DNA of 64,000 nt from an uncultured virus (IMG/VR IMGVR_UViG_3300028840_008159) (IMGVR_UViG_3300028840_008159); one strand, 5' to 3'. Shown: positions 5,860 to 50,447, numbered from the stretch's first letter. The notes: a model not told the origin generated them from the letters alone. Program-made: numbers and translations.

Positions 5860-5916
5860 GCCTGAGGTCTCGAGGAGGCAAGGTCATGCAAGTACTGAAA
5901 TCGGGACTCAGGGAAA

Positions 5917-6129
5917 ATGACGATGAAGAAGCCCATGGACGACGACCCTGTCAAGCTGCTCAAGACGGCCATCGACAGGCAATTCGAGACCTTCTTCGGA
6001 GCCCAGGAGGAGCGGCTCTCCGAGATGACCCTCAAGGAGGCCGTCCAGACCGCCTACCTGATGGGCGTCGTGGTCGGCCTCAAGGACAGCATCAAGTCAA
6101 TCGGGCAAATCTTCGGCGAGAAAGGCTAG
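5917..6129 (+). CDS. hypothetical protein
   Basis: 70 aa ORF with good codon bias. Confidence 0.6.
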   Translation: MTMKKPMDDDPVKLLKTAIDRQFETFFGAQEERLSEMTLKEAVQTAYLMGVVVGLKDSIKSIGQIFGEKG

Positions 6130-6187
6130 TAAAACGAAGGCCCGACGAGCGATAATCAAGGAGAACGACGATTCAAGGAGAACGACG

Positions 6188-6580
6188 ATGGGAAACAGGG
6201 CGGTCATTTGCTTCGACGAGTACAAGCCGGACAACGTCGGGATCTACCTCCACTGGAACGGGGGACGGGACTCCGTCGAGGCGTTCCTGGAGGCGGCCAA
6301 GAGGCTGAAAGTCCCGCTCGGAGACCCGGCCTACGCGCTCGCCAGGCTCGTCCAGGTGATCGGGAACTTTTTCGGCGGTACGACGAGCGTCGGGGTCGAG
6401 ACCCTCGCCAACCTGGACTGCGAAAACGGGGACAACGGCGTGTACGTCGTTGACTCGTCCACGTTCGAGATCAAGGAACGCAAGTTCTTCGACGGCGACG
6501 AGCAGGAGGGCCACGACCTCGACGAGATGGTCGAGAAGGTCGTGGAGGACAACCCCCAGTTCACGAGGGACGAGACATGA
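6188..6580 (+). CDS. hypothetical phage protein (MGNRAVI...GIYLHWNGG type)
   Basis: AAGGAG RBS, repeated element upstream; motif pattern recalled from large-phage hypotheticals, not searched. Confidence 0.8.
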   Translation: MGNRAVICFDEYKPDNVGIYLHWNGGRDSVEAFLEAAKRLKVPLGDPAYALARLVQVIGNFFGGTTSVGVETLANLDCENGDNGVYVVDSSTFEIKERKFFDGDEQEGHDLDEMVEKVVEDNPQFTRDET

Positions 6581-6870
6581 GCAAGCCCAAATGCCCCCAG
6601 TTGATCGAGTGCGGGGACCACAAGATGTCCCCCTTCTGCATCATCTGCGTCCACCTCATCGAAGGTTCCCCCCGTAAGGCTTTCGCGCTGCCCGCCAGCG
6701 AGGCGTCGCCGGAGGTCGATCACGACTGGGTTTGCGAGAAATGCGTCGCTACCATGGGCAAGCGCGGCGCCAAGGCCGTCCTGGACGACCTGCGCCCGGT
6801 CTGCATCCATTGCGCCCGGAAGGTCATCGACAGGCACGAGAAGGACATGAGCGTCATGGAGGAGGACTGA
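6577..6870 (+). CDS. Cys-rich zinc-binding hypothetical protein
   Basis: CGDH, CVH, CEKC, CIHC; ATGA overlap. Confidence 0.7.
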   Translation: MSKPKCPQLIECGDHKMSPFCIICVHLIEGSPRKAFALPASEASPEVDHDWVCEKCVATMGKRGAKAVLDDLRPVCIHCARKVIDRHEKDMSVMEED

Positions 6871-6871
6871 C

Positions 6872-7126
6872 ATGAAGGTCATCGTCGATTACGGCCTGGG
6901 CCAGGAGTTCAAGTTCGACACGCGCCGTCAGGCCTCCGAGTTCCTATACGAGTTCATGGAGAAGAACGGGCTCCCTAAATACGTCTACGAGCGCCCCGAG
7001 GACGAGGAGAAGGAGGGCGCGTCCCTCCGCTACCTGCAACTCAAGGTGACGGTGGGGGAGGGGGGCAAGAGGGAAGTCCTCGTCAAGAAGCTGCGCAAAC
7101 AGAAGCAGAAAGGGCGCAAGAAATGA
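6872..7126 (+). CDS. hypothetical protein
   Basis: GGAGG RBS, 84 aa. Confidence 0.7.
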   Translation: MKVIVDYGLGQEFKFDTRRQASEFLYEFMEKNGLPKYVYERPEDEEKEGASLRYLQLKVTVGEGGKREVLVKKLRKQKQKGRKK

Positions 7127-7319
7127 TGGACAGAACCCAGGCCATGCGACGCGCCAGGTCGTACAGCAAGCGACACCGTTGCGAGGTGCGCGTCGAGCAC
7201 GTCGTCAAGGGACGCGCCAAGGGCTGCTACGAGACCGTGGAAGACCCATCGTGCCCCCTTACATGGTGGGCCGACAGCGTCGTCGAGGTCGTTGCGATCT
7301 ACCGGCATGGGAGGAAGAT

Positions 7320-7598
7320 ATGAGCCACGTGATCATGCGCCAAGCCCACAGGGAATGCCTCGACCTTCTCATGCGCAAGAAGGGAGTCATGAACGAGAAC
7401 GGTTGCAGCCTCGGGAAATACCTGGAAGCCTTCGGGGAGGACGGCCTGAAGCTCTACGCTGTCCACCTGGCCGACCTGGCGTTCGCCTTCGGGCGCGTTC
7501 GATACTGGGAAGGGGAGGGGCCACGGCATCACGACGCCCCGGCCACCCGAGAGGACATCCAAAAAGCCATCGCGTTCGCTGAAGGAGGCGAGAAATGA
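7320..7598 (+). CDS. hypothetical protein
   Basis: start re-picked at MSHVIM (GGAGG RBS, ATGA overlap). Confidence 0.65.
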   Translation: MSHVIMRQAHRECLDLLMRKKGVMNENGCSLGKYLEAFGEDGLKLYAVHLADLAFAFGRVRYWEGEGPRHHDAPATREDIQKAIAFAEGGEK

Positions 7599-7907
7599 AG
7601 AAGCTGCCACTGTCAAAGGTAAGGCTCAAGCGCATCGACCTGTCCAAGGCCAAGGAACACGACCATCCCGACACGGGACGCAGTACCTGGCGAGGGCCGG
7701 GGACGGTTCCCCCAGTTGATCGTCGGGGAATTCAGCCGACAATGGTACGGCCTGAACTTCGACTGGTACTGGAACGCCGCCGCAGGCCTCCAGTTCGACG
7801 CCCCCGGATTCAACCAGTCCGGCTGGCTGGAGCTTTGGGAGATCCTCAGCTCTCGCCGTAATAGGCGACGCGAGGTTCCGTGGTCTCGGAAGCGGAAAAG
7901 AAAATGA
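7595..7907 (+). pseudogene. probably frameshifted hypothetical gene
   Basis: protein-like N-terminus (MKKLPLSK...HDHPD) in one frame and protein-like C-terminus (VGEFSRQWYGLNF...WLELWEI) in another without its own RBS; the second frame ends in ATGA overlap with the next gene. Confidence 0.4.
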
Positions 7908-8137
7908 TCTATCACCTGAACCCCCAGCGAAAACCGCCGCCATACCCGACCAGGAAGGTCGTCAAGTGGGAGTGGGTCGACGGGTACGGGTGGTGGATGG
8001 AGCTGGAATGCGGTCATCGCGCCGGACGCGCCTGCAACATATTGGTCGCAGACAAAGTACGGCCGACACGTTACCCTTGTACGAGCTGCCCGCGCTCGGG
8101 TGAAACGAAGGGCCGCCCCGCGAGCCGTTGAGAGGAG

Positions 8138-8590
8138 ATGACCATGAGCCGGAAATGGGAAACGAAATGCCATTCGTGTGACAACATGGGGATCGCGGCC
8201 ATCCTGAACACGCCCGGCCCCGGCGGGACCGTCGTTCGCAAGCCCGTCTGCGCCAACTGCTTCGTCATGGCCTCCATCAGGGGGAAGCTCGGCAAGCTCG
8301 TGGCCTCCGAAGGGCCATGCGTCATTTGCAAGGCGTTGGGCGGAAGCATCCCGTCGTTGAAGCATGGGGGCGCCGGGAAGATCGTCGAATACAAGTTCGA
8401 CTTCGCCAGGACCGAGATCGAGTACTCCTGCTGCGTCGAGCACATGAAGGCCATCGCCGACCTGAACCTCAGGCCAAACGAGGTCAAGGCGTTGCAGGGC
8501 TTGTTCGGGGTGACGTTCAACACCCACGACGACTTCTACGACGAGGACGGGAACGCCGTCCAGCCGAGGTCCAAGCGAAAGGGATCGTGA
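8138..8590 (+). CDS. Cys-rich hypothetical protein
   Basis: GAGGAG RBS; CHSC, CANC, CVIC; element at 8096. Confidence 0.75.
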   Translation: MTMSRKWETKCHSCDNMGIAAILNTPGPGGTVVRKPVCANCFVMASIRGKLGKLVASEGPCVICKALGGSIPSLKHGGAGKIVEYKFDFARTEIEYSCCVEHMKAIADLNLRPNEVKALQGLFGVTFNTHDDFYDEDGNAVQPRSKRKGS

Positions 8591-8591
8591 C

Positions 8592-9206
8592 ATGAAGAGG
8601 ACATGCCCCCACTGCAAGCAGATCGTCGAGGTCAGGGATGGCCTCTTCAAGTACCATGACTGGCCCCCGAACTGTCGGTCTTGCTGCCCCATGTCGAAGA
8701 AGCCGCCCAAGGAGACCGAGAGAACCCTCTGGTGCCTGGTCCAGGAGGACCCGGACCCGGATGATCGTGCGGAAGGATCCCTGGTCTTCAGGAACGAGAG
8801 CGGCGCCCGTAACGCCGACGACGTCCCGTGGCAGGTCATCGAGCAGTCCAGGCGGATCGGCGAGCGCAACGGGCTGGAGGTCGTCGACTGGGAGGTTTAC
8901 CAGGACCAGGTCATCGTCTACATGGACGGGCCTTTCGGGGAAATCGACATGACCGAGATCGCCGAAGAAGGACAGGGCCAGCAAAAGGGGGGAAATTCGA
9001 TGCGGATCGAGAAGACCGACAAGCATAGCCGGGTCCTGCTGGTCAAGGACATCCCGACCAAGCATGGCGAGCCTGGCGAGCCGGTGGAACTGGAGATCGT
9101 CATCAACTATACCGAGGACGGGGAAGCCGGGCGCGTTAACAAGGCGGTTTGTCTTGACGGCGTCGTCATCCCGGCAATCATCGAGAGGTTCAACGCCGGG
9201 GAATGA
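8592..9206 (+). CDS. hypothetical protein, possibly two fused genes (second start near 9000)
   Basis: 204 aa ORF with CPHC; internal purine-rich stretch before MRIEK. Confidence 0.6.
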   Translation: MKRTCPHCKQIVEVRDGLFKYHDWPPNCRSCCPMSKKPPKETERTLWCLVQEDPDPDDRAEGSLVFRNESGARNADDVPWQVIEQSRRIGERNGLEVVDWEVYQDQVIVYMDGPFGEIDMTEIAEEGQGQQKGGNSMRIEKTDKHSRVLLVKDIPTKHGEPGEPVELEIVINYTEDGEAGRVNKAVCLDGVVIPAIIERFNAGE

Positions 9207-9229
9207 CCCGTTTTTAACAGGAGGAAGCC

Positions 9230-9466
9230 ATGACGACGCTAGACCGTGACGAGAAGGCCGCCGGGTTCGCCGGGTTCGTCGTCGGGTTGATCCTGGCGGT
9301 CCTCTTTACTTCCTGGTTCTGGTGGATTAGCAATGCCCTCCTAAGTCGAGAGATCAGGGACATGAAGGCCACCGCCGTCGAGTACGGGTACGCCCAATGG
9401 GTCACCGGGAAGTCCAAGGAGCCGGAGTTCAAGTGGGTCGTCCCCCCCGAGGCCCAGGCGGAATGA
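9230..9466 (+). CDS. small single-pass membrane protein
   Basis: AGGAGG RBS; hydrophobic segment GFAGFVVGLILAVLFTSWFWWI. Confidence 0.75.
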   Translation: MTTLDRDEKAAGFAGFVVGLILAVLFTSWFWWISNALLSREIRDMKATAVEYGYAQWVTGKSKEPEFKWVVPPEAQAE

Positions 9467-9561
9467 AAATCCCAGGATCACTCGGCGGCCTGGGGGATCG
9501 AGCGTGGCAGGCCATCGCGTGAAAAGAAGGCCCGCCGTGGGGTTCGTTCGAGAGGAGAAGA

Positions 9562-9786
9562 ATGATGGCCATCCTGAATACCCCCACCAAGAAGGCATTC
9601 CGACGCGCCTCCCCGCAAAAATGGCACCTTCCGGGGACGGAGGGGAACTACGACGGGCTCGTCATGACCGCCTGCGGATTGATCCTGTACGACGGGGAGC
9701 GCGAGGAGATCGAGGTCGAGGCCATCCCGGCTCGGAGCATTTGCCAGAAATGCCTCGGCCCCTTGATCGCCACGGACGAGGAGTGA
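9562..9786 (+). CDS. small Zn-finger-like protein
   Basis: WH...TACG...CQKC; element at 9515, GAGGAG RBS. Confidence 0.7.
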   Translation: MMAILNTPTKKAFRRASPQKWHLPGTEGNYDGLVMTACGLILYDGEREEIEVEAIPARSICQKCLGPLIATDEE

Positions 9787-9790
9787 AACG

Positions 9791-10219
9791 ATGCCAAGCC
9801 TAACGAAAAAGATCCGTAGTATGCTTGGTTTGAAAGGAGCAAGACACATGGATAACTTCGTCGAAGCCATCAATGGCAGTTGGACCACACTCCACCGTCT
9901 TATTGTGGATACTCAAACAACCCCCTGCGGACTTAAATGGCATAAGAAAGGGAACAAAAGAAAAAAGTCAGTCGCCAGAAACGAAGTCTGGATTCCAAAC
10001 GCAGTCTACTTCGATGCCCCTAAGAAATGCAAAATCTGCTTCAAGAAAAAGAAACGGAAAATCCAAAGAAAGATAAAGATCCTCGACTGGGAAACGGACC
10101 GGAAGGGATTGCTACGGGAAAAAGCCGAGATTCTCGAGCCGGAGGTGAACAATGACCGATTACAGCAAGATCGAGGAATACGCTCGTCACGGAGGAGCCT
10201 ACGACAGGGGCGCGGCTGA
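9791..10219 (+). CDS. Lys-rich hypothetical protein, low GC
   Basis: H...TPCG...CKIC, resembling the upstream gene; AT-rich codons. Confidence 0.55.
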   Translation: MPSLTKKIRSMLGLKGARHMDNFVEAINGSWTTLHRLIVDTQTTPCGLKWHKKGNKRKKSVARNEVWIPNAVYFDAPKKCKICFKKKKRKIQRKIKILDWETDRKGLLREKAEILEPEVNNDRLQQDRGIRSSRRSLRQGRG

Positions 10220-10373
10220 TAGCTGGTATCGCCGTCCTCGCCGTCCTCACTATTTCGTCGGTGGAAGCTATACCAGCGAGGAAGTGACGGATTTGACCCC
10301 CGACGAGGTAGCCGCTTACCATCAGGGGTTTGAGGACAATGAGGCCAGCGGCGGCCACAAGGAATGGGACTGA
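10152..10373 (+). CDS. small phage protein (HGGAYDRGAADSWY type)
   Basis: GGAGG RBS; motif recalled from phage hypotheticals. Confidence 0.75.
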   Translation: MTDYSKIEEYARHGGAYDRGAADSWYRRPRRPHYFVGGSYTSEEVTDLTPDEVAAYHQGFEDNEASGGHKEWD

Positions 10374-10495
10374 TTGGCGTAGGAGGGCAAAGGAACAATG
10401 CGTCGAGAAGAGATGACCCGGAAGAAGATGCCCAAACAGAGAAAGGGTGATTCCGTGGTCGAGGAATAAAACATAACCGAGATGAGGTAAACGAC

Positions 10496-10729
10496 ATGAC
10501 CGACTCCATCCACCTACAAGGCATCGGGCGAGTCCCCGCCATCCCCGCTCGCGACCTGCGCCCCGGCATGCTGCTCTCCTGGAATTACTCCTGGCGAGCC
10601 TACAAGGTCGAGTCCGTCAAGGACGCCTCCCCCATGTTCATGGAGGTCGTCGAGACGAACGTCCAGACCGGCCGCCAGTCCAAACGCAGGCTCAAGAAGA
10701 ACAGGCTCGTCGCGGCCCACCAAGCCTGA
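10496..10729 (+). CDS. small SH3-like hypothetical protein
   Basis: ARDLRPGM pattern, GAGG RBS. Confidence 0.7.
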   Translation: MTDSIHLQGIGRVPAIPARDLRPGMLLSWNYSWRAYKVESVKDASPMFMEVVETNVQTGRQSKRRLKKNRLVAAHQA

Positions 10730-10745
10730 TCCCCCACCCAAGCCG

Positions 10746-10773
10746 TTGACAATCCAGCGTCCCAGGGTATCCT
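10746..10773 (+). promoter_or_regulatory. sigma70-type promoter
   Basis: TTGACA-N16-TATCCT, intergenic, 27 nt before ATG 10801. Confidence 0.7.
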
Positions 10774-10800
10774 TCGCATGAGAAGGGACGGGACGCGACC

Positions 10801-11148
10801 ATGAACGACAAGCCCATGCAGCGTTTCTACTTCCGCCTGACCTGCGAAACCGAGTCGCCCTCCACGGTCGCCACGTCCGAGTTCGGAATCGAGATCGAAG
10901 TCTCGCCCGGCGGCCCACGTTCAAGGTCTCACGTCGCCACGTTCCTCTGGGACCTCGCGTTCACCCCGTGGGTGCCACCATGGAACTTCCGCTGGATCGA
11001 GACGATGAGAGGGGTCGAGAGGGAGGCCAGCCTCGAGGCCATCCGGACGTCCAGGAAGATGTCCCTCAGGCTCCTCCCGTGGAAGAAAAGGATTCGCTGG
11101 GCCACGACGAAACGCGAGGGGTGGGTCGAGGAGAGGCTGCTGCCATGA
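10801..11148 (+). CDS. Trp/Arg-rich hypothetical protein
   Basis: first ORF after the promoter; ATGA-coupled to 11145-11381. Confidence 0.55.
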   Translation: MNDKPMQRFYFRLTCETESPSTVATSEFGIEIEVSPGGPRSRSHVATFLWDLAFTPWVPPWNFRWIETMRGVEREASLEAIRTSRKMSLRLLPWKKRIRWATTKREGWVEERLLP

Positions 11149-12229
11149 GTCGCAGGCGCCCGGTCCGGTTCGAGCCCATCATCGGGTTCGGGGACCAGTC
11201 CATGTACTTCAGCATGAGGATATCCCCAAAGAAGCCGTCCCCGATGGACGACATGTTCGTCGCCGTCGCGATCTCCTCATACCGGGCGGCCGACGTCGTC
11301 GAGCGCGTCTTTGAGAGTCCGATGCCCCACCTCAAGATCATCATGTTCGAGTCCATCTCCGGAAGGGTCGCGTCCCGTTGAATCCAGGGAGTCATCCATG
11401 AGCTTTCCGATCCAGGTTTACTTCAGGATGGGCGGCCTATACCACGGGGAGGTCCGGATCGTCGTCGGCAAGCCGAACGGCTGCGTCCTCGACGTCCGGC
11501 GCCTGTTCCCCATCCCGCAAGCGGACGATCCATCCCCGTTATCGACCATCCTCGGACGGAACCCGTGGGGCGCGTGGATCAGGGAGCAATGGAGTCAGCA
11601 TCAGCAGGACGTGATGGGGGACGTGTTTGGGCCGAGCCTGCATCGCGTCAGGACCGTGCCACACGCGCGACTCCCCATGGCGCTGAGCCTTTTCCTCCTT
11701 GACCAAGCCCCCGATAGGGATTACGTTGGGGTTCATGAACATGAGGAAACATATCGGCTTCGCGAGCGCCTGGAGGATGGAGCGCGACGATCCGTTTCCC
11801 GTCTTTAACTTCTACTGCGTCAAGCAGCAGGGTCAGGGCCAAGGCGTCGTCAGCGACAAGGAATGGGACGTCATGGGGATGCTCCCGATACGCGTATCCC
11901 TCCCGTTCCCCCACGACGAGCCATGGTCCCGCGCCTGGATGAGATGCTTCGGGAACGGCATAAACATCGCCCACCCATGGTATCACGGACCGCAAATCGG
12001 AACCTCGTCCGATGAAGGGTGAAAAAACGCGAGCGCCCCTGACGGGAGCCATCGTCAAACAGGCCACGAAGAAGGCCAGGGATTCCATCCCGTCCGACTG
12101 GAAGAAACCCTACTGGCCCCCCGAATGGTCCTGGCCGTGGCTCGGGATAAGGCGCGAATCAGACAGGGAAAGCTGCCCGCGAGCAATAATAATAATAGGT
12201 GGGATGAGGCCGAGCGCTTTCGGACGGGG

Positions 12230-12258
12230 AGGCCCCTCCGGGGGGTGTTCGGCGGTAT
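12230..12258. repeat. 29-bp exact copy of 50520-50548
   Basis: AGGCCCCTCCGGGGGGTGTTCGGCGGTAT at both loci. Confidence 0.9.
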
Positions 12259-12306
12259 ATATTAGGGGCTTGCCCGAACTGACCTGCTGCGAGGGAGGAA
12301 TCGACG

Positions 12307-12579
12307 ATGGACAAGCGAGACCTGAGGGTCGGGGAGATCGTCCAGCTCAATCCCGAGACCACCAAGAACAAGGCCTTCGCCGGCTGCCTCATGGTCGTCA
12401 GCGAGCCCAAGTCCTTCGGCGCCCAGGGCTACGTCCAGGCGCTAGGGGAGTCCCGCGACGACATGGGCGGCCAGGCGTACTACAGGGCCTCCTGGGACGA
12501 GATGGAGGAGACCGGCGGCTCCGCCCCCTGGCTGATCGGGAGCGCCTCCGAGGAATGCATTTCACGGAGCGGAGATTAG
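12307..12579 (+). CDS. small phage protein
   Basis: GGAGG RBS; GEIVQLNPE...FAGCLMVVSEPKSFGAQGYV. Confidence 0.8.
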   Translation: MDKRDLRVGEIVQLNPETTKNKAFAGCLMVVSEPKSFGAQGYVQALGESRDDMGGQAYYRASWDEMEETGGSAPWLIGSASEECISRSGD

Positions 12580-12825
12580 CGGATGAGGTGCGTAAACTGC
12601 GAGGATGAGTTTAAGATCAAGGAGCCTGTCCTACCGGAGATATCGACGATGATTCGCCCGAACGATGTTCCGTTATGCGTGCGGTGCCTTTGCAGGCGGG
12701 AGATGCGGTGGCTGAAGTTCTGGCATTACGTGCAAGTAATCTGCTTCTGGCTTCTCATCGCCTTGTTCATCCTCGTGCCTATAATAGCGCGCATACGAGG
12801 ATGATCGGGAGCGCCTCCGAGGAAT
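12533..12825. repeat. 24-bp direct repeats flanking an inserted low-GC gene
   Basis: TGATCGGGAGCGCCTCCGAGGAAT at 12533-12556 and 12802-12825. Confidence 0.9.
12583..12804 (+). CDS. small CxxC plus C-terminal transmembrane protein
   Basis: CVNC...CVRC and hydrophobic tail; GGAG RBS; lies between the direct repeats. Confidence 0.65.
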   Translation: MRCVNCEDEFKIKEPVLPEISTMIRPNDVPLCVRCLCRREMRWLKFWHYVQVICFWLLIALFILVPIIARIRG

Positions 12826-13349
12826 ATGACCAATGCGCCGCTACGTCGAGATCCACCACGGGCACTACGAAGACGACGAATTCGACCCCTCGATCGGCCT
12901 GTACCACCGGAGGTCGGCCCTCGTCGTCGACGCCGTCTCCCACTTCCCGCCCGAATACTATGATCATCCCGACGGGACGAGGGGCCTTTGCGCGAGCCGC
13001 GTCCGCCTCGGCGACATCCGCTACCCCATTCGCGTGAGCCTGGAATGGCAACGCGTGATCCGGACGATGGACATGTCCCGGGGGTTCAACTCGTGGGACT
13101 TCCGGAGATGGGAAGCCCTCCGGCGAGGAGGAGAGACAAGGAGAGACATGTGATGCTTTTCAAACACTGGATGATCCTGTCCCTCGCCATCAGCCTTGTC
13201 CTATTAGGCTCTTCTTTCGTGGCCGTCGTCTGCTATTACAACATTCCCCTAAGCGTCTCATTGATTTTCACGGCCATCTTGGCCCATGAATTCTGCATTC
13301 ACAAGTCGAGGAAAGCTCCATTCTCCAAGAAGAAATGGGAGTCCAACCC

Positions 13350-13754
13350 ATGAGCAGGAAGCCGAGGCAAAGGACCGTCTACGGCGTCAAGGTCGAGGTC
13401 CCGAGGGCGGCCACCATGAGGCGCCGCCACGGCAAGTGGTGGGTCGACCCGTCGGGCGGATGGTTCTGGTCCCACGACTCGGACTTCCCCGTATGCCTCT
13501 GCACGAAGCCCAACTGGCTGGACCACGCCCACAACAAGGTGTTCGCCGCCATCGCCAGGGCCGAGCTGGAGCGCTCCGGGGTCCACGGCCGCCGGGCGCG
13601 GGCGTGGCAACGCGTCTACGAGAAGGCCTGCGCGGCGGAGGAGAGGCACCGGGCCGCGCTGGAGAGGCAGCGCGAGCGCCTCGAGGAGAGGAACGAGAAG
13701 ATGCCCACCTGCGGGCACAAGCAGCGCAGGAAGCTGAGGGAGGGACGCGAATGA
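13350..13754 (+). CDS. basic hypothetical protein
   Basis: ATGA overlaps at both ends. Confidence 0.65.
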   Translation: MSRKPRQRTVYGVKVEVPRAATMRRRHGKWWVDPSGGWFWSHDSDFPVCLCTKPNWLDHAHNKVFAAIARAELERSGVHGRRARAWQRVYEKACAAEERHRAALERQRERLEERNEKMPTCGHKQRRKLREGRE

Positions 13755-15379
13755 AACCGACGACAAGCGCCTGCATCCATTTGGGTCTGGACGCGGTCGC
13801 CTGGAGGCGCATCCGGCGTCATGTCGTCTCGGGGCCCCTCGTGATGCGCGACGGCATCGGGCCGTGGGCGGGCGGCCGAGATCACTACCTCGTAACCCTG
13901 AAGAACGAGTGGGGCGCCTTCGGACCCCTCCGAGGAGTAGGCGCGTCATCATTCTCAAATCCGAGCGTCATAAACCTTCTTGTCCCGTCCCGCGAATGAC
14001 GCTCGCCAGGACGGTCCGCCGGATGACTCCGAAAACAACGCCTTCCCGGGGCCACCCCCGCTCGACTCCCCGGAGGACGCCCCAATGCTCCAGCAATCCC
14101 ACGTTGGACCTCCGGAACGCCTCCTCGACGAAGAACGCGTCCTGCGAGCCCCGAACCTTGAACGCCTCCCACCGGCTCATCTCGCGATCCTCAGGGTGAA
14201 CATCTCGCTCCTCCATGGACTTCGGGGCCGGGCGTAGGGGGAAGGCAGCTCGGTCATCGAGACCACCCCCCGGAACGGCCACCCCATCCGGTCCCAAGCC
14301 GCTACTAGCTCTCGGCTCACGTTCTGGTCCAGCAGGACGGAAGACATCAGGGGCGGCAACAAGTACTCCCCCTCCTCCCGGGGGCTCGACGCCAGGGTGA
14401 CCGTCATCGAGACCATCCGCATCCTCGACGTGGGCATCCTGCTGGAATCGAACCACAAGGCCAGCCGCTCAGCCATGCCTGAACCTCATCTCCCACTGGG
14501 CCGCCCCCTCCGCGTGCCCGTGCATCAGCGCGATCCGCGTCGCCGGGACCGGCCCCACCAGCCTCAGGATCGACGCGTCCACGTTGCGGAGGGGAAGCCG
14601 GACGGTGCAGTCGATCCCCTCGACGGGATGGTTCCAGGGCGCCCTCGTCGCCCTGAGCCGGATGTGCAAGGCCCCCGCGCGACTGGGGACGTCCACGAGG
14701 TCCATCAGCAGACGGCTCGGGGAGCAATGCGTCGTCACCCAGACGAACTCGCGAGCCCCGAGGATCCTCAGCCACGCGAAATTGATCATCCGCCTGGGCC
14801 AAGAAGGGTCGACGGCCGCGTCGAGCGCCTCGGGCCCCGGCTCCTCGACGACGCGATCATCAAAGACGACGACAAGGTCATGCTCGAGGCTCATCGAACA
14901 ACAACTCCTCTAGTTCCGGCGGAAACGGGTCCCCCGGCACGAACCACGGCCCCTGGATGACACCCGACCACGAGATCGGGATGGTCAATCGCCGGGCCAG
15001 CGCGTTCTCGTACCGGAGGCTGGAGATCGCGTCCCGATGACCCGACCCGCCCCTCAGGAGACCGCAACGGGCGATCTGAATTCGTGATCCCTCGACGCCC
15101 AGGACCGACATGTACAGCTCGATGGCGCGCCTCAGCGGGGTCTCCTTTCTGGCGATGGCCTTGATCGATGGGCCGCCAACTCGCGCTCGCGCTCCGTCGT
15201 CCTCGCCAGCCGCCACAAGTCCTCGGGCTTCGACCCGTTCCAGGTTCGCCACGCCCCCCAGGCCACCTCGGAGCCCCCGATGCGGACCAGGCATCGGTCC
15301 TTCAGGTTGCGTCGCAGGTTCAACGGGAACCTCTCCATCCCATTCCCTCCGACGTCAAGCCTACCACGCCGGCACCCCG

Positions 15380-15407
15380 TTGACAACCCCCGGCCGCGTG
15401 GTATCCT
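15380..15407 (+). promoter_or_regulatory. sigma70-type promoter (extended -10)
   Basis: TTGACA-N16-TATCCT with TG upstream of -10; followed by AGGAGG and ATG 15429; same architecture as 10746. Confidence 0.7.
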
Positions 15408-15979
15408 GAACCCAGGAGGACCCAAGACATGCCGCGATGCCCGAACGAAGTCGGGGGGGCTGCGCTTCGCCGGGGAGCTGGGCTCGATCCACGCCGAGGG
15501 CCCGGATGGGGAGCGAAAGCCACTCGAGTCCAGGACGCGCTCGAACATCATGACCGACGGGCTGCTCCTCCTGCGCGGGGAGTCCCTCCCCCTCCTCGTC
15601 GACGCCATCCCCTCCCCGGGGAACCTCCATAGACACGTCGGGTTGTGGTGCGTCATCCCGTCCGCGAACGCGGGCCTCCGGATCACCCGCTTCGGCTCCG
15701 TCACGGCGAGATGGTCGTGGGTCGAGACGATCGAGGAGATCGAGGAGAGGAGGACTTCATGAGTTGGCCGTTTCCCCCTTCGTTCGGCGTCAAGGCAGGA
15801 CGTCCAACGGACCACGTCGTCATGGAGGGCGTCGGCCCGGGATCGCTGGTCCCTTTCTTCGACAACCTCGTCGGGGACGAGGCGTGGAACGCGGTCGCGG
15901 ACGCGTTCTCGATCTCCCCGTGGTGCGTGGAGATGAAGCGTCCCGGATACCTGGGCTCGGAAGCCGTGAGGGGGGTCCG

Positions 15980-16249
15980 ATGACCGACGCCCTCCCCGCG
16001 ATGCGCAAGCGCATGCTCTCCTCGTACCACCGGGTCTCGGTCAAGGCCGGCTTCGTCAGGAACGGGACCGTCCGCAGGATGGGCGCCTGGCAGGACGACT
16101 TCCTGTCCTACGTCCTGGACTACTACAGGCTCCCCTTCACCATCCCGAAGGGACGCGATCTCAAGGACTGGCAGGTCAACATGCTCGTCAGGAACCAGGT
16201 CGCCGCCCAGATGGTCGACGCCAGGGAACGCACGTGGGAGGACCGTTAA
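15980..16249 (+). CDS. hypothetical protein, paralog of 20651-20911
   Basis: shares DALP..R..MLSS...WQ..F...VLD...LP.T.P....L..WQ...QV.AQM with 20651-20911. Confidence 0.7.
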   Translation: MTDALPAMRKRMLSSYHRVSVKAGFVRNGTVRRMGAWQDDFLSYVLDYYRLPFTIPKGRDLKDWQVNMLVRNQVAAQMVDARERTWEDR

Positions 16250-16252
16250 GAC

Positions 16253-16486
16253 ATGAGGACGACGGGTAAAGAGAAAAAAGACCTGTACCTGCTGGTCGGG
16301 AACGGGACCTACCGGCAGGACTCCTGGCTCCTCAGGACGTCGAGGCGACCCTTGCTCCTCGGACAGGCGATCAAGGCCGTCGAGGACAAGGTCGGGCTGC
16401 GGGGAATGGATCGCTCCTCGGCCACCTTCGACCTGGTGGCGGTCCAGCCCGAGCTGGCCCTGGACATCGACGAGCCAAGCGAGTAG
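16253..16486 (+). CDS. hypothetical protein, paralog of 37814-38017
   Basis: C-terminus LVAVQPELALDID vs LVAVEPELALQID. Confidence 0.7.
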   Translation: MRTTGKEKKDLYLLVGNGTYRQDSWLLRTSRRPLLLGQAIKAVEDKVGLRGMDRSSATFDLVAVQPELALDIDEPSE

Positions 16487-16529
16487 CCCCAAGGCGATGT
16501 CAGGGCGATGTCAGGGAGGAGGAGGAGAC

Positions 16530-16856
16530 GTGGCAAAGCGAAAGCGAAAGAAGAATAAGGACAAGCCCCAGTTCCGGGCCAGGCTCTGCGACGCCGGGAC
16601 CGACTTCCAGTATTTCTCGATGAGGACGGCCAAGAAGGACAACGCCGTCGACCTCGGGGTCCTCACGATGGCCGAGCTGGCCGAGTGCCTGACCGGGGCC
16701 ATCGGCTGCCCCGGCCTCGTCCCCGTGTACCTCGGCGACCTAGCCATGGCCATCCTCGAGGACTTGAATTTCGAGGGCAAGGAGAAGCTTGGCCCGCTGC
16801 TCAAGGAGGCCAGGAAGCGCAGGGACAAGTGGACCCTGAGAAGACGCGTGACCTAA
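16530..16856 (+). CDS. hypothetical protein
   Basis: GTG start after GGAGGAGGAG. Confidence 0.7.
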   Translation: MAKRKRKKNKDKPQFRARLCDAGTDFQYFSMRTAKKDNAVDLGVLTMAELAECLTGAIGCPGLVPVYLGDLAMAILEDLNFEGKEKLGPLLKEARKRRDKWTLRRRVT

Positions 16857-16860
16857 GTCC

Positions 16861-17166
16861 TTACTGAATCTTGGCCCATTCGATGCCGCGTTCGCGGGCT
16901 TCCCTCGCCGTGATGTCTTCGTCTCCGGCCCCGAACGTCGTGGATGGCTTGATGGGAGCGCCCGGGAAAAACGTCCAGACGATCTCCTCCGTGCCAGTCA
17001 CGTTCCCCTCCTCGTCCTTGATCTCGTGTGGCCCAAGAAGCAAGACCGTATAGCCCACGTTCGGCAAGCCGCCCGGGACGTCATCCTTGGAAACGATGGC
17101 TGACTGCCCAGATCCCGACTTGACCGTGCGCAATTGGACGGGCGTATTCGGCGGTAACTGGGCCAC
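16861..17166 (-). CDS. hypothetical phage protein
   Basis: 101 aa; TVLLLGPHE...VWTFFPG; GGAGG RBS supplied by the 48-bp copy. Confidence 0.7.
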   Translation of the reverse strand: MAQLPPNTPVQLRTVKSGSGQSAIVSKDDVPGGLPNVGYTVLLLGPHEIKDEEGNVTGTEEIVWTFFPGAPIKPSTTFGAGDEDITAREARERGIEWAKIQ

Positions 17167-17173
17167 CTCGATC

Positions 17174-17221
17174 CCTCCCTCGCCAACGATACCGCCGCGT
17201 TCGAGCCCGTTTCCGGCGTGG
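17174..17221. repeat. 48-bp exact reverse-complement copy of 57145-57192
   Basis: CCTCCCTCGCCAACGATACCGCCGCGTTCGAGCCCGTTTCCGGCGTGG. Confidence 0.92.
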
Positions 17222-18624
17222 GGTGGCGGGGTCCCTCGGGGAGAGGGCGCCGTGAGGCGTCCGGTCCAGGAGGTTCCGACCCGACTTATGACGAACTAAA
17301 TCCCAGGCGCAGGAAGCCGCGCCCAGGAGAAAGCCATGAAGATCACGAAGTCGGAATCCTCCCTTCAAAAGACGCTCTCCACGCGTCAGCCAGGAACCAA
17401 CATAGGGAGCGCGTTTGACCGTCCCGTGACGATCGAGGAGCTCAAATCGTTCGACTGGGAACCATACTCGCATCCAGACGTCGCCCCCCCCGCGGTCTCT
17501 TTCAAGACGGAAGACGTTGGCGGGACCTTCGGGATTCATGAACGGGATGATGGTAAAGATGGCCAATGACCGCATCTCGCGGGCATTCGACGCCACGATG
17601 AGGATCGCCCCGGACTACCTGTGCTCCCCGCCGCGTCAAGGGATGGCCTCCATGATGTCCCTCCTCGCCGCCTCGGCCCTGATCGACCTCTCCGTCCGCT
17701 CGTCCATGGGGAAGACGATGACGACCCGATGGGCGATCCTATCGAGGTACCCGGACGGCCCCGAGCGCGGGTAGGACACGTCCAGCCCGTAACAGGGCCC
17801 CGCGACAGGGTGGGTGCCAATTCTGATGTCGTTGAACTCGTCCAAGCCCATCATCTCCACCCGGATGAACCGCCGCCTCCTCAACAGGGAGTCCAAGCGC
17901 CTCCTCCATGGGCTTCCTGGCTCGGAGGAGCTCCGGTACGCGTCCCACATGGCTCATCCCCCAACCTTGAAGACGTGTCCCCCGTCCCGCAACACTGGAG
18001 TCGGCGATCCCGGGAGCCTGAACGGGAAAATCGGCCTGAATCCCAGCGCCTTCTCCATGACGATCAGGTACATCTCCATCCATGGCGCGTCCGCCCCCCA
18101 ATCCCGGCCCCTCTTCCACAGGTACGGTCCGATACCCGGAATCAATGGCTCGACGAGCCAGCGACCCTCCAACGTGCTCTCCCCCCCGCGAGACTCGACC
18201 CACATCATGGCGGCTCGCCCGTCCTCATACGGGGTGATTATCGGCCGCAACAACTTGCGCCCCCGGCCATCGCGCCTGCCCATTTCACCGAAACCTCCGC
18301 TGATGGAACCCCCGCCACGTGAAGGGCTCCCGCATCGCCTCCTGCGTCGGATCACGCGGTAGCCCGGACGACAACCTGCCCAACAGGGAGTGCGCGCAAC
18401 GAACCTCCGCGACGGCGCTCACGACGCGCGGGTCCCGGCTGACGCTGACGACCCAATGGTCATGCCCGGAGCCATCCTGCCCGACCAGGAACATGACGTA
18501 TACGCTGTGTCGGACGCTGCTTCGGACAAGGCCCCGACGCGGTACGGCCGGCGCCGGCCCGACGACGTCCCACTCCTTCGGCTCGTCATCGTCGAAACCC
18601 ATGGGTCCCTTTCGCTTGCCCATC

Positions 18625-18706
18625 AAGGCGTCCTCGCCGCGTCGGCCACGGCCACCCAATGGCGTAAGGCGTCCTCGCCGCGTCGGCCACGGCCACCCAA
18701 TGGCGT
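18625..18706. repeat. perfect 41-bp tandem duplication
   Basis: AAGGCGTCCTCGCCGCGTCGGCCACGGCCACCCAATGGCGT x2. Confidence 0.92.
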
Positions 18707-20163
18707 ATCGCGGCCCGGTACATCGGGTGGCCCCGCATCATGATGACCCCCTCCACTTGATCGAGAACGACCCCGCTAACCCCCGACAAGTCCGGCAGCG
18801 CCCTCGGAACATCCGCTGGCCCCGGCTTCGGGCCGTCAAAAACCACCTGAAGGGCGAATGATAGCCTCACGAGCCCTCCCCCGGCGGCGCGATCCACAGG
18901 CACGCCAGGCAGAAGACCGAGCAAGCCCCCAGCAGGTAGCTGACGTAATTGAACCCGCCCGCCCCCCGGGCGGCCGGCAACACCCCGATGACGAGGACGA
19001 CCAGCAACGCGCCCAGCATCTTCATCCTGAACCTCATGTCCCACCTCCTGAACCTCATGTCCTGCCGCCCTTCGCGTGCTTAATCCCCATGCGTCAATCC
19101 CCATGCATCAGGATGTATTCTTCCTTGTGGGAGCGCCAGTCCTCGGGTGGTCCCAGGAGCACCACCATCCTCCCTCGGTCTACCCTCTTGATGACGGCCC
19201 AGGGCGTCCCGTAACGATGCGACGTGGCCTTGACGATCATCCCGACGAAGGGAAAGACCGGCAACGGATCGGGCCAATCGACCTCCCAGCGCCTCATGTA
19301 GGACGAAAGGCATGGATCATGATCGTAGCTCACGGCGAACATCCGCGTCTGCCTCCTCGAACGATACCCTACCACGCGACGCGCCCAAAGCAAGCCTTGA
19401 CTCGGGCCCCGGAAGGGTTTATCGTCCGTCCATGAAGAAGAAGATACACATGATCGTGGAGGGACGCGCCTGGCGCGCCCTCCACGAGCCCGCGAGGGCA
19501 TCCATCGCGAGACGGTGGCGCACGGCGTCGTTCCCCCTCGACGTCCTCGCGGGCAGCATGCTGGATTTCGTCCGCGATCAGGGGGGGAAATGGCGAGCGT
19601 CATGAACATGCCGATGCGGATGCCGATGCGGATAAGGTGGTTCCTGGACGTGGCTTACTTCGGACCCGCCAGGCCGGCCGGCCCGTATCCGGCCAAGGCC
19701 ACCCTGCCCGTCAAGACGTTCGTGGCGTATCACGTCCTGATCCGCATGGGCTTGTCCCCGACGTGGGTCCTCAGGGCCGGCCCTGGTCGTCCATTCCCCG
19801 GGATTCAACGGAAACCATGAACTTCAAGGTCGATGGCCACATCCACGTGGGGCTCGACGCCGTCCCCGACCGCGATACCATCGTCTGGCGCATGCACGTC
19901 TTCGCCAGGGACCACTCGTCCAGCGTCGACCTGTCCCTCGGACTCCTCCGCTGCTCGGCCAGCGCGTATTCCCAGCTCATTAGAGGGTGGGGCTCCCACG
20001 GGCGGCGGCGGCGATGGAACGTGGCGGGCTCGCAGTTCATGTCGGCCTGGGCGGGATACATGATGATCGAGTGGTCGCAGCCTCGGCAGGGCGCCCCCAA
20101 GGGCTTCAAGGAACCATGGAAACCGGGCCTCCTCCCGGCCGCCATGGACCGGAGGGTCAGGAA

Positions 20164-20451
20164 ATGAAAGACGCCTCAGCAATCCCATCAGGCCCCTATT
20201 GCCACGGCAAAAGCCTCGGTGACGTCTGCCCGTACTGGAAACTCCTGCCAGATAGACCCGAACAATACAACGGGTGGTGCGATTTTTTGGGGAAAGGCGA
20301 TATCGAATTGGGTGGCGAAAAGGAATTAGAGAACGTGGATACGGGGGAGAAGGCGAAGGGATCCGAATTCGGTTTTCCCGTCAGTCTTCTGTGGGACCAA
20401 TGTAAAGAATGCGGAATCAACGAGGACGAGGACGAGGGAGCCCAGGAATGA
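20164..20451 (+). CDS. Cys-rich phage protein, low GC
   Basis: IPSGPYC...CPYW...GWCDFL...LLWDQCKECGIN. Confidence 0.75.
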   Translation: MKDASAIPSGPYCHGKSLGDVCPYWKLLPDRPEQYNGWCDFLGKGDIELGGEKELENVDTGEKAKGSEFGFPVSLLWDQCKECGINEDEDEGAQE

Positions 20452-20650
20452 CCGACCAAGACGACGCCTTGTCCTTCGGCATCCCCTTCTTCCTGAGGCA
20501 GCGCGTCAGGAACCACTGCCGGGAGGACGTTAGATTCTTCCGACGCGCCTGGATCGCCTGGGCCACGAGGACCGGATCACAGTCCTTGAGCCACCGCCCC
20601 CTGATACCGGTCCTCTGGCCAGCCGGCGAGACGCGGCCCCCGCGACCCCG

Positions 20651-20911
20651 ATGAACCCCCCGATCGACGCCCTCCCCCGCATCCGCAGGGGCATGCTGTC
20701 GTCCTTCCGGGCGATCCTCCTGAAGTTCGACCCCACCCTCCGGACCGCCTTGCGCTCCTGGCAGAACAGGTTCGTCATCCACGTCCTGGACCAACACGAG
20801 CTCCCCTACACCTTCCCGACCGACCCCGAGCTGGAGAGCTGGCAGGCCAGGGCCATCGTCGGGGAGCAGGTCGTCGCCCAGATGATCGAGTCCAAGGGGA
20901 CCAAGGGATGA
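20651..20911 (+). CDS. hypothetical protein, paralog of 15980-16249
   Basis: visible end-to-end similarity; ATGA overlaps. Confidence 0.7.
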   Translation: MNPPIDALPRIRRGMLSSFRAILLKFDPTLRTALRSWQNRFVIHVLDQHELPYTFPTDPELESWQARAIVGEQVVAQMIESKGTKG

Positions 20912-21858
20912 ATCGACCGATGGAGCTAAGGTGTCGCCTGGGATACGCTTACTTCGGCCCCGTCATCGACGAACCGCGCCCGTCAACCCTCAGGCTCCGG
21001 CCCGTCAAGGCGTTCGTGGCGGTCGCGATCCTGACCCGCATGGGGGGTATCGTCCCCGGTCCCCGACGTGGATCATCCGGGGTGTTGGCTGGGTCGACGG
21101 TCCCCTTTACATGTCCGCCCTTCACATTTCGGGCGCTGTAACGCGAGGTGGAACCGCATGAAGTGCGGGAAGGCGTCCCAGAAACGACGGTGGTCGATAT
21201 TCCATCTCCAGCGAACGCACATTACGAACGGCATGGCGGCTTTCCGCTCGAGCGGCAGCCTGTGGTAATTAACGACTATCTGGTGCCTGGCGATGGTTCC
21301 CGCCATCCGGAGCTTCTCCAACACGCCAGTTGACGTCATGAGTCCCTCCCCATGGACGCCTTGACCGAGCTATCCATGGCCTCGAGGTCGATGTCGATGA
21401 TCCTCCTCGACAGGCGCATGAGGGAGCGCCTCTCCAGCAGCCGGGGGAGGCTGTCCCGGAACCACGGATCGCCGATCAGCTTGGCGTAAGCCCGGTGACG
21501 CTGGGCGTGATGGAGGTTCAGCGTGTCCAAACCTAGCCCCTCGAGGCAGACATGATTCCGTCTTCCGTCCTGAGGATCCCGAAAGACGGGTTCTGGAAGC
21601 TGTTCCAGGCGCCGTCGACCTGCCTCCATTCGACGGACTGGATTCCCGACCACAAACGGGGGGCGTAGCCGATCTCGCTGGTATAGTCCTCGTTGGATGC
21701 TCCTCCGTGGGAAATGACGAACTTGGCGTACCCGGCCCTGATCGGACGCCTAACGACACGCTTCCTCGCCATCGGTTCCTCCTATTCGCCGCAAAACCTA
21801 CCCTCTGGAGAACACGATTTCCAGCCCAAAACCCGAACACGACACGTATGATGCACTC

Positions 21859-23139
21859 ATGGAACTGGTCTTCTGGCAACGCGATGACGTGATCAGGATC
21901 GACTCCGAGGACGCCGAACGGCTCGGCCTCGACCTGGCAGATGGTGACGAGGCCTTGTGGAAGGCCGGATGGAGGGTCGCAAACTCTTCCAGCGGACTTG
22001 CTTACCTGAAGCGATCACGCGGCAGAAGGAGCGTCCCCGCGCACAGGGTAATCGTCGGCTTCTGCGACAAGGACGGCAATCGACTCGAGGGATGCGAGAA
22101 TTACGTCGTCGATCACGTCGACGGGGATGGTCTCAACAATACCCGGTCTAACCTCAGGATCGCCAACGCGCGGATGAATAGCATCAATAAAATCGCGTAC
22201 CGACTACGGATGGGCGACGGATCCGTCGAGGGCTACGCCAAGAGGCTCCACGCGGCGAGGGTCGACGAGGGCAAGGCGGAGCGGGCGCTTCGCCTCGCGA
22301 GGGAGCAGACGTTCGCTTGCGAGGCCGAACTGGACATGGCCGCCTCGAAGAAATGCGGATTGGACGTTGATGACATCAAGGCCCTGAAGAGCTCCCTCCT
22401 TCCCGAACCGTCCAAGAAAGTGGCGGGGACGGGGGATTACGAGCCAAGGAAGGACGACCCCCGTCCCGTGCCCAAGGTTCCCAAGCCGGATTTGGCCCAG
22501 CAAGAACTCAGGAACGTCTACCGCGAGAAAAGGGAGCTGGAAGCCATCCTGTGCGTCCTCGCGCCCGTCCAGATGCACGAACAGAGGATACGGGAGTCCA
22601 ACCGCAGGAAGGACGCCGATCCTGCGGGGATGAGGCTCGCGGAGAAGATAAAGGCCATTCGAACGGGCAACCTGCCGTCGTTACCCCTACCCCAAAAACC
22701 AAAGCCGCGTCGCTATTCTAGGCCCAAATACGAGAGCATCAGGAAGCTCCTTCGCGAATCGCCCGAATTATCTAACCAGGAGATCGCCCGTCGGGTTCCC
22801 GCGACCCCTTCTTACGTGTCACAGGTTGCGGCGCAGCTCAGGAAAAAGACGGCCTCCAAACCCAAACCCGTTACCGAACTCAAACCCGTTACCGAAGCCC
22901 ATGTCCTGGAGCGAGTGCGCAAGCTGCGTCAGCTCATAGACCGTGACCGTTCGAAAAGACGGCGAACGACCTTTTTCTGGGACTCGTACCGGGAAAAGAA
23001 GTTGCGCCGGTTGCTCGATGGCGGCCAGTTCGCGGAGGCGAACGAGTTGTTGGATACAGCGGCGGGAGACTACCGGCGCGGGCCGAAGTACGTCCAGAGA
23101 GCCCGTGAAGTACTAAAAAACAAGGGAAAACCCGTGTAG
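21859..23139 (+). CDS. HNH-endonuclease-domain protein with C-terminal HTH-like region
   Basis: AHRVIV...VVDHVDGDGLNNTRSNLR (phage HNH signature); LSNQEIARRVPATPSYVSQV (HTH-like). Confidence 0.75.
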   Translation: MELVFWQRDDVIRIDSEDAERLGLDLADGDEALWKAGWRVANSSSGLAYLKRSRGRRSVPAHRVIVGFCDKDGNRLEGCENYVVDHVDGDGLNNTRSNLRIANARMNSINKIAYRLRMGDGSVEGYAKRLHAARVDEGKAERALRLAREQTFACEAELDMAASKKCGLDVDDIKALKSSLLPEPSKKVAGTGDYEPRKDDPRPVPKVPKPDLAQQELRNVYREKRELEAILCVLAPVQMHEQRIRESNRRKDADPAGMRLAEKIKAIRTGNLPSLPLPQKPKPRRYSRPKYESIRKLLRESPELSNQEIARRVPATPSYVSQVAAQLRKKTASKPKPVTELKPVTEAHVLERVRKLRQLIDRDRSKRRRTTFFWDSYREKKLRRLLDGGQFAEANELLDTAAGDYRRGPKYVQRAREVLKNKGKPV

Positions 23140-23385
23140 GGTACCCTCTCGGCCCCCAAAATTTAACGATTTACAGAAACTACTTTTCCCTAATTCTTTC
23201 AAACTGGCTCTACACAATCGTGTTCAGCTCGCTGGACATCAGTAAATCTCTAATGGCCCGGGGCTTCCAAGACCGTACACGCGTTACGTTCTCGTGGTAG
23301 CGTTCGAGCTACAACCCAGGTTGAAGACCCCTCATGGCCCTACGATGTAGAACTTCTTGGGGTCATCCGCAGGTAGAACCTGGGC

Positions 23386-23510
23386 ATCGGCGACGGATCG
23401 GCGACGGATCGGCGATCGCCGGCATCGGCGTTCGGCGTTTATCCCCGATCGGCGTTCGGCGTTACCGGCGTGTCGGCGTCCGGCGTATCGGCGTTCGGCG
23501 TGTCCGGCGT
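23386..23510. repeat. low-complexity CGGCG(T/A) repeat tract
   Basis: about 15 CGGCG cores as ATCGGCGACGG, TCGGCGTT and CCGGCGT units. Confidence 0.85.
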
Positions 23511-23654
23511 TTACGGAATTCCTGATGGGTTTACGGAAATCCTAATGCATTAGGGTTTTCTTAATGACGTCAATCGCCAATCCGCCAGATCGTCATTGAT
23601 CCATGAAGGAAAACGACTACGCGGTCGCGAATCTGGCCGTTGGAGGGCCGAACC

Positions 23655-24239: not shown

Positions 24240-24340
24240 ACGGTCGATTTGCGAGAACGTTAGTTCAGGAGCTTGATTTCATAAATCCTGAAATGTCAAC
24301 GTGTAGGGAGATCGCCAACTAACGATTCCCCGCGAGAACG

Positions 24341-24440
24341 TAAGTTCAGGCACGGTCGAGGAGATCCTGACACGCCCACGAAGAAAGAGACACGGCCAGT
24401 CGAGATCAGGCACGGCGACCGAAAATCAGGCACGTCGGAC
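24341..24440. repeat. five GRCACG boxes at an exact 20-bp period (iteron-like)
   Basis: CACG at 24351, 24371, 24391, 24411, 24431; three units read TCAGGCACG. Confidence 0.85.
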
Positions 24441-24583
24441 AGGCTGATTTCCTGGCCGGGTCGGGGACAAGAAATCTTATGTCCTGCCTGATGGGCGAAG
24501 GGGATTTTCTCGAGGGAGCTTGTCAGGAAAGGACGTTTCGGGCGTATATATAGGTTTGCCCTCGAAAACGCGGCGTCGCGGGG

Positions 24584-24602
24584 ATGTCAACCGGGTTGAC
24601 AT
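24584..24602. promoter_or_regulatory. palindromic operator-like site
   Basis: ATGTCAACC-G-GGTTGACAT perfect inverted repeat. Confidence 0.55.
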
Positions 24603-50189: not shown

Positions 50190-50447
50190 GATTCGCTCCT
50201 TGCCCCCTTTTGTCAATCTCAACGTCATCAGAGACGGGCCTTCGTTGCACCTGGTCCTCCTGACACGGCGAACTCCTGGTGGCCAGGCACGGCCGGCCTC
50301 CGGGCCTTCGCGTTGCCTGGCCGAAAACCTCCGGGCCTTCGGACGCCCTGGCCGGGGATTTCCTGACACGGTCATATGAAGGATAGCCTGGGAGGGTGGA
50401 CATCAGATGTCCTTGGTTCCCGAAAATTCTTGGATGGTGGACGATGA

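Follow-up and report, generated by a model that had tools for sequence, protein, structure and literature searches.

The 64,000-nt stretch of DNA analysed here (the window) comes from an uncultured virus (IMG/VR IMGVR_UViG_3300028840_008159) and carries two small genes, which we call A and B, whose 5′ leaders contain exact copies ('patches') of segments of two distant minus-strand open reading frames (ORFs), T_A and T_B. Read in the direction of gene A or gene B, both leader copies are antisense to these target ORFs, which are intact, each holding the partner copy. The genes, patches and leader elements are the following (RBS, ribosome-binding site; SD, Shine-Dalgarno sequence):

12307-12579, plus strand: gene A, 90 aa, a small viral protein without assigned function (phrog_19062)
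16861-17166, minus strand: gene B, a 101-aa orphan with a GTG start
50448-50681, minus strand: T_A, a 77-aa Cys-rich orphan, codons 44-53 of which are the 29-nt sequence 50520-50548
56897-57298, minus strand: T_B, a 133-aa orphan with its own RBS, codons 36-52 of which are the 48-nt sequence 57145-57192
12230-12258, plus strand: leader A patch, identical to 50520-50548 and antisense to the T_A mRNA and ending in the 9-mer CGGCGGTAT
17174-17221, minus strand: leader B patch, antisense to the T_B mRNA; it holds CGGCGGTAT, CGTTG and the SD of gene B, GCGAGGGAGG
12289-12304, plus strand: gene A copy, GCGAGGGAGGAATCGA, of a 16-mer shared by the two leaders; translation initiation region, SD plus spacer
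17168-17183, minus strand: gene B copy of the 16-mer, GCGAGGGAGGGATCGA, of which only GATCGA lies outside the target match
Leader A in order, plus strand: 20 nt (12230-12249), CGGCGGTAT (12250-12258), 30 nt, GCGAGGGAGG (12289-12298), AATCGA, CG, ATG at 12307
Leader B in order, minus strand: 24 nt (17221-17198), CGGCGGTAT (17197-17189), CGTTG, GCGAGGGAGG (17183-17174), GATCGA, G, GTG at 17166

The leader A patch and 50520-50548 form an exact direct repeat of 29 nt, and the leader B patch is the exact reverse complement of 57145-57192, an inverted repeat of 48 nt. When the 90-nt leaders of 99 predicted genes were compared against all coding sequences, these two were the only antisense matches longer than 14 nt (next best, 14 nt); sense-orientation matches in the same comparison reached 16-19 nt. 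The coordinates and sequence strings that the initial annotation had given for both leaders hold throughout. In each of two DNA runs, a single Logan contig covers the leader A patch together with both of its flanks, and the metagenome contig L010 is identical to the window over 38310-59650 (100% identity, 21,341 nt), both targets included. Since these contigs agree with the window, an assembly artefact is unlikely; the long repeats are real and beyond chance. L010 is 107,126 nt long and, by its offset, is expected to cover the whole window.

The two leaders also resemble one another. The 9-mer CGGCGGTAT occurs four times in the window as compared to 0.30 expected, a count reached in 0 of 100 shuffles, and the same count bears out the claim that both target ORFs carry it. 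The 16-mer GCGAGGGAGGRATCGA is found without mismatches at the two leaders only, the next best among nine window matches having three mismatches, and by similarity just before the start codon the A-B pair ranks second of 4851 leader pairs (the first-ranking pair has a common promoter-like leader). On the strength of the unique 16-mer and this rank, the leaders can be said to be related beyond RBS bias, and comparison of the downstream proteins A and B confirmed that these are unrelated. Some of the likeness is nonetheless of a kind that chance or RBS bias may supply: the 16-mer is partly SD, other leader pairs share 13-18 nt, and GCGAGGGAGG with up to one mismatch is not enriched (17 found, 14.5 expected). 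One unrelated leader pair in the window has an exact 18-mer in common at the RBS and start codon, so RBS context alone is able to yield matches of this size:

6858-6875 and 52469-52486, opposite strands: the 18-nt RBS/stop/start context GGAGGAGGACTGACATGA, at two unrelated genes

Leader contexts thus recur in this genome, as GGAGGAGGACTGACATGA shows. As an account of the whole, chance, RBS bias or an artefact of assembly is improbable in the extreme: exact repeats of 29 and 48 nt cannot arise randomly in 64 kb, and the repeats are present in contigs of two runs plus an independent metagenome contig. We reject it for the long repeats; it is possible only for part of the 16-mer likeness.

The initial annotation had seen in the shared elements a separable constant scaffold. 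Such a guide system would consist of a constant RNA module and exchangeable 5′ spacers, swapped at CGGCGGTAT and aimed at chosen genes or at related phages. In its favour, 9-mer and 16-mer follow one another in the same order in leader A and leader B, up to the start codon; the 9-mer also recurs in each target and marks the exact end of patch A. In leader B, though, the target match runs unbroken through the 9-mer, CGTTG and GCGAGGGAGG, so that what was taken for a constant module duplicates target sequence; the RATCGA tail does lie outside the target matches, as claimed, and in leader B GATCGA is the sole leader-specific piece. The distance from 9-mer to SD is 5 nt in leader B and 30 nt in leader A. 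The two leaders have no common RNA fold (z = -0.5, +1.8, -0.6 and +0.8), no nuclease or RNA-binding protein that could act as effector was recognised beside either leader (PHROGs, Pfam), and Rfam yielded nothing for the window at the gathering threshold, nor, at E<=1, for 11500-18000. The 16-mer search returned no scaffold instance in the window beyond the two leaders. In IMG/VR, the pattern CGGCGGTAT-N(0-30)-GCGAGGGAGG is found at eight loci, all unrelated to the window by blastn and tblastx, and none of the eight has an RATCGA tail before a start codon. Finally, the perfect targets are the phage's own genes. The guide-scaffold interpretation is not supported, and we regard a guide system of this kind as very improbable.

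A further result can be counted for it. In both runs the 48-mer forms a k-mer contig of its own in the Logan data, with a depth about three times that of its flanks: 77.8 against flanking contigs of 24.6 and 20.8 in run 1, and 75 against 22.9 and 19.9 in run 2. Two copies would give a depth of about 45, so three copies fit best, and the third is not within the window; for comparison, a 41-nt tandem repeat known to have two copies (18625-18707) gives 49.8. Judging by depth only, the source of the third copy may be another part of the genome, a co-occurring relative or a T_B region that has been duplicated.

We favour a different account, to which we give an even chance: short-homology or illegitimate recombination has copied short pieces of coding DNA ectopically from two right-arm genes into the leaders. 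The patches would have been inserted into intergenic DNA before two orphan genes, in a recombination-prone accessory block of a phage of about 547 kb. Because the target match of leader B spans the 9-mer, the spacer and the SD, patch B is a single contiguous copy. The 'scaffold' would then be part target-derived sequence and part related ribosome-binding context, with no dedicated RNA module. Copying would have run from coding sequence to leader; we lean this way since the T_B copy has coding periodicity (G or C at 14 of 16 third codon positions; binomial estimate P ~0.045) and since both targets are intact ORFs. The reverse, from leader to coding sequence, is less favoured.

The source sites themselves are locally alike, although the proteins T_A and T_B are mutually unrelated. 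The 9-mer has the same codon phase in both genes, and the 17 nt beyond it agree at 12 positions (P=0.0012 among in-phase coding pairs), giving 21 of 26 nt in common around the 9-mer; a random 29-mer and a random 48-mer drawn from the right arm had a common 9-mer in 1.2% of 400,000 trials. Genome-wide, the T_A-T_B likeness is no better than the best background matches, and its weight comes from T_A being a predefined partner. When the 48-mer was aligned to the window by Smith-Waterman, additional partial matches at 53.8 kb and 23.45 kb came out at background level (maximum for shuffled queries, 26.4 +/- 2.7). What stands of the proposed recombination at CGGCGGTAT is a plausible junction: patch A ends exactly there, and T_A and T_B share the in-phase 9-mer and the 12 of 17 nt beyond it. 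The 3′ junction of patch A would lie at the CGGCGGTAT core, and T_A may have been chosen as partner for its prior likeness, 21 of 26 nt, to a leader sequence derived from T_B; a patch ending at a perfect 9-nt block is the residue expected of homeologous recombination between the T_B-derived leader and T_A. For patch B, the 3′ junction may be a short match at the SD-like GAGGGAGG, a type of match that is the commonest short match between leaders and the antisense of Ser, Leu and Pro codons.

The neighbourhood has several further rearrangements. The window has six exact repeats of at least 24 nt, and five of them reach into 11.8-18.7 kb, a block amounting to 11% of its length; these are the two leader patches and the following three:

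11823-11846, plus strand: CobT-like patch, a 24-nt exact copy of 41402-41425, inverted on the DNA, from the Q/G-rich repeat of a 1057-aa CobT-like gene
12533-12556 and 12802-12825, plus strand: 24-nt exact direct repeats flanking the 245-nt segment 12557-12801
18625-18707, no strand assigned: perfect tandem duplication, period 41, two copies, at the 5′ end of a minus-strand ORF

The first of these is a third short right-arm patch in the same 5-kb region. By coordinates, with the frame worked out by hand, 11823-11846 (in a 107-aa ORF) and 41402-41425 are both sense and in the same frame, encoding QQGQGQG. Segment 12557-12801 has a G+C content of 0.53 as compared to 0.67 and 0.64 alongside, and encodes a 73-aa membrane-like ORF with a CxxC...CxxC pattern; the repeats around it duplicate the junction between the end of gene A and the RBS of the next gene, and it looks like a recent gene insertion with junction duplication. 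The 41-nt tandem duplication forms a k-mer contig of about double depth in both runs. Taken as a whole, 11.8-18.7 kb looks like a hyperplastic, recombination-prone block of orphan genes rebuilt by short duplications.

Overlapping this block, 13900-21800 has a raised G+C content (0.65-0.68), overlapping ORFs on both strands and an ambiguous coding signal, and gene calls there are uncertain. In the Logan data no contigs were placed on 18822-22000, which may come from filtering. Beyond it, 21859-24239 holds two HNH endonuclease genes with non-coding short tandem repeats between them (TCGGCGT units, 23386-23547).

As a by-product of such copying, mRNAs crossing the leaders would be able, by their sequence, to form perfect duplexes of 29 bp with the T_A mRNA and 48 bp with the T_B mRNA, and the leader B duplex would cover the SD of gene B. 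This complementarity may affect expression, and nothing shows selection for it. The opposite view, that the pairing is itself what has been selected, is the main rival, which we keep because of the leader A hairpin described below, the sense echoes and the stable duplexes (predicted at -69.5 and -112.7 kcal/mol). It holds that the leaders, from a block free of promoter-like motifs, pair with T_A and T_B mRNAs produced by motif-driven units, and that the duplexes are cut by an RNase III-like RNase or mask or unmask an SD, making the gene pairs mutually exclusive or timed. We take this possibility seriously while judging it rather unlikely.

The RNA structure that bears on it lies at leader A:

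12209-12253, plus strand: RNA hairpin of about 21 bp, five of the pairs being G-U, built around a G-tract and a C-tract, with the patch as 3′ arm

The hairpin has a predicted energy of -31.8 kcal/mol (z=-3.12; 2 of 200 shuffles as stable), and the minus-strand RNA scores z=-1.58. All five non-Watson-Crick positions of the long stem are G-U, which confines the hairpin to the plus-strand RNA. With GGTATATATT directly 3′ of it, the hairpin may be a terminator, an attenuator or a processing site. The TATATT that follows has, by eye, no -35 partner. For leader B the local fold is not significant (z=-0.28). The hairpin arms do not qualify as diverged inverted DNA copies of the patches (868 of 2000 and 1828 of 2000 shuffles score equally). 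The strongest terminator-like site in 11-22 kb is at 17301-17328 on the minus strand: a G+C-rich hairpin of 12 bp with TTTAGTT after it, lying some 80 nt upstream of patch B.

The sense echoes are weak, sense-oriented likenesses to the target segments just 3′ of each patch, scored equally by 111 of 2000 and 41 of 2000 shuffles; the latter is the likeness of gene B codons 2-10 (~17138-17163) to the sense strand of the T_B segment.

Promoter content separates the leaders from their targets. A 20-nt promoter-like motif, CCAGG-N5-CGAAGGCCCG, occurs 29 times in the window (5840-63716) as compared to 0.6 expected, always co-oriented with the adjoining genes and about 25 nt ahead of an RBS and start codon. 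A tandem array of three copies occupies 50235-50351, and the copy belonging to T_B, at 57323-57342, precedes its start codon by 25 nt. A phage-specific polymerase or sigma factor probably uses the motif as its promoter. A window scan found none in 5860-24897, the block holding both leaders, and T_A and T_B lie in the motif-rich minus-strand arm. The claim that both leaders are perfectly antisense to genes of this arm is supported, with no motif near either leader. The sigma70-class context that had been ascribed to the leaders fared otherwise: a scan of 11000-22000 for sigma-70-like promoters gave two sites (15380 and 19397), neither at leader A or B.

For selected antisense control, then, speak the perfect complementarity, the position of both copies in leaders and in antisense, the gene B SD inside its duplex, patch A as part of a stable, strand-specific hairpin, and the different promoter content of the two blocks. 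There are two cases only, however, the complementarity to the targets is in the middle of their coding sequences, the antisense segment of leader A is mostly buried in the stem, no promoter was found upstream of either leader, and no relatives carrying these genes were found in which conservation could be judged; the same region also has a sense patch and duplications without antisense logic. A more elaborate version, in which the phage wires its own gene pairs through recombination at CGGCGGTAT that installs perfect antisense copies of coding sequence in 5′ leaders as a re-addressable mRNA-mRNA switch, we consider decidedly improbable. In it, the antisense arm would stay sequestered in the leader A hairpin until displaced by the partner mRNA.

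The repeats could also act at the level of DNA, as sites of binding or cleavage, for instance by the HNH endonucleases of 21859-24239, or as crossover sites, with a 40-kb inversion between the 48-bp repeats or a deletion between the 29-bp repeats, and with local repair making the patches. All four loci have the 9-mer core, a one-mismatch inverted 9-mer is present in the first codons of gene B (17149-17157), the two HNH endonuclease genes are nearby, and 48 bp of perfect homology suffices for phage recombination systems. Set against this, no isomers were seen (L010 is colinear across T_A and T_B, and the Logan contigs agree with the window), an inversion would cut T_B short, and the repeats exceed the typical length of a protein-binding site. 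We hold such a DNA-level role to be improbable.

Several points weigh against ectopic patches as the whole explanation. One is that the two patches, antisense to the local gene, sit directly in 5′ leaders and have a common core; it is weakened by the one-in-four probability of chance orientation alone and by the third patch, 11823, being sense, so that the antisense sample is only two of three. That a patch makes up the 3′ arm of a strand-specific, unusually stable hairpin suggests a function at the RNA level. The perfect identity over 48 nt could equally come from selection or repeated conversion. At their 5′ junctions the patches show no microhomology, the direction of copying rests on weak statistics, and a single patch event does not explain the A/B likeness in the 16-mer. 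Furthermore, 48-bp inverted and 29-bp direct repeats about 40 kb apart should be costly as rearrangement substrates, and their persistence thus needs either a recent origin or a benefit.

Among known systems, the CI RNA of satellite phage P4 is a comparable antisense system. Another is c4, the antisense RNA of phages P1 and P7 (Citron and Schuster 1990, cited in PMC8198154). The c4 and CI RNAs resemble the present case in that a phage leader is complementary to another region of phage mRNA, with a specificity that can be changed through the matching segments. They differ in being small processed RNAs that act through short complementary boxes close to the RBS of a gene further down the same operon, and in belonging to temperate immunity systems; here, by contrast, the complementarity is perfect over 29-48 nt, falls mid-coding sequence (T_A codons 44-53, T_B codons 36-52) and involves genes at a distance of about 40 kb, and Rfam gives no match. 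Complementarity at the RBS, as described for c4/CI, is absent from the targets; only the SD of gene B falls within a duplex.

The promoter-early stem-loop (PeSL) cassettes of T4-type phages offer a second comparison (Arbiol et al. 2010, PMC2839356; see also Comeau et al. 2014, PMC4122927). Like the leaders, they repeat a short regulatory sequence immediately before orphan genes of hyperplastic regions, up to the SD and start codon; they include a G-tract/C-tract stem-loop with G-T pairs, as leader A does, and their small genes are reshuffled by recombination at short repeats. Unlike PeSL repeats, which contain -35 and -10 promoter elements and are present in many copies per genome, the leaders have no sigma-70 consensus, the 16-mer has two copies in 64 kb, and the partner copies lie inside distant coding sequences, in antisense. 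As to a stable stem-loop of the PeSL kind, leader A has its hairpin (z=-3.12), whereas leader B gives no significant fold (z=-0.28) and has the separate terminator-like hairpin at 17301-17328 upstream. Homeologous or short-homology recombination is described as a source of phage mosaicism by Martinsohn et al. 2008 (PMC2327257), with novel joints forming between imperfect short matches, which fits the 9-mer junction within the 21-of-26-nt homeologous block. That work concerns exchange among diverged genes of different phages and not intragenomic leader patches of 29-48 nt.

The window has a G+C content of ~0.62, and most of the proteins it encodes are orphans; the others include CobS- and CobT-like ATPases, ligase-like proteins and the two HNH endonucleases. 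Searches of the window for tRNA genes and Rfam families gave none. Proteins encoded in it are also found on contigs as long as 546,851 nt, from which we take the window to be part of a huge uncultured phage (~547 kb), and the DNA of this phage is present in the two DNA runs, labelled as sediment and seawater metagenomes; no RNA run was among those listed. A megablast of 10-20 kb and 48-60 kb against phage records returned no close relatives, and none came to light when gene B, T_B and the CobS-like protein were used in protein scans of IMG/VR. The 24-mer CGGCGGTATCGTTGGCGAGGGAGG has one match in GTDB, in an Oscillospiraceae metagenome-assembled genome (L018 3001-3024), where it encodes VGGIVGEGG in a Gly-rich repeat protein; we judged this a coincidence.

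Genes A, B, T_A and T_B are all orphans or nearly so, which is expected for a hyperplastic region. The sole match of gene A in the phage collection is in Pseudomonas phage PAE2 (57% identity), and the leader of that homologue has only GCGAGG in common with leader A. A large protein database returned for T_B and gene B only the proteins themselves, and a protein atlas gave no function for gene A or T_B. A peptide scan of JGI metagenomes with gene B gave no match, though a protein cluster table lists gene B from JGI/IMG. At loci with a 76% or 58% identical CobS-like gene, T_A and T_B were not found in the stretches examined.

The case is a caution against inferring scaffold-plus-spacer logic from two examples. 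If the leader patches are recombination scars, they give a snapshot of how the orphan regions of huge phages are rebuilt from patches of 24-48 nt joined at short matches such as ribosome-binding sequences, and such events would automatically yield long, perfect mRNA-mRNA complementarity, raw material for antisense regulation. If the pairing is instead selected, it would give a virus a new and easily reprogrammed means of linking the expression of genes that lie far apart.

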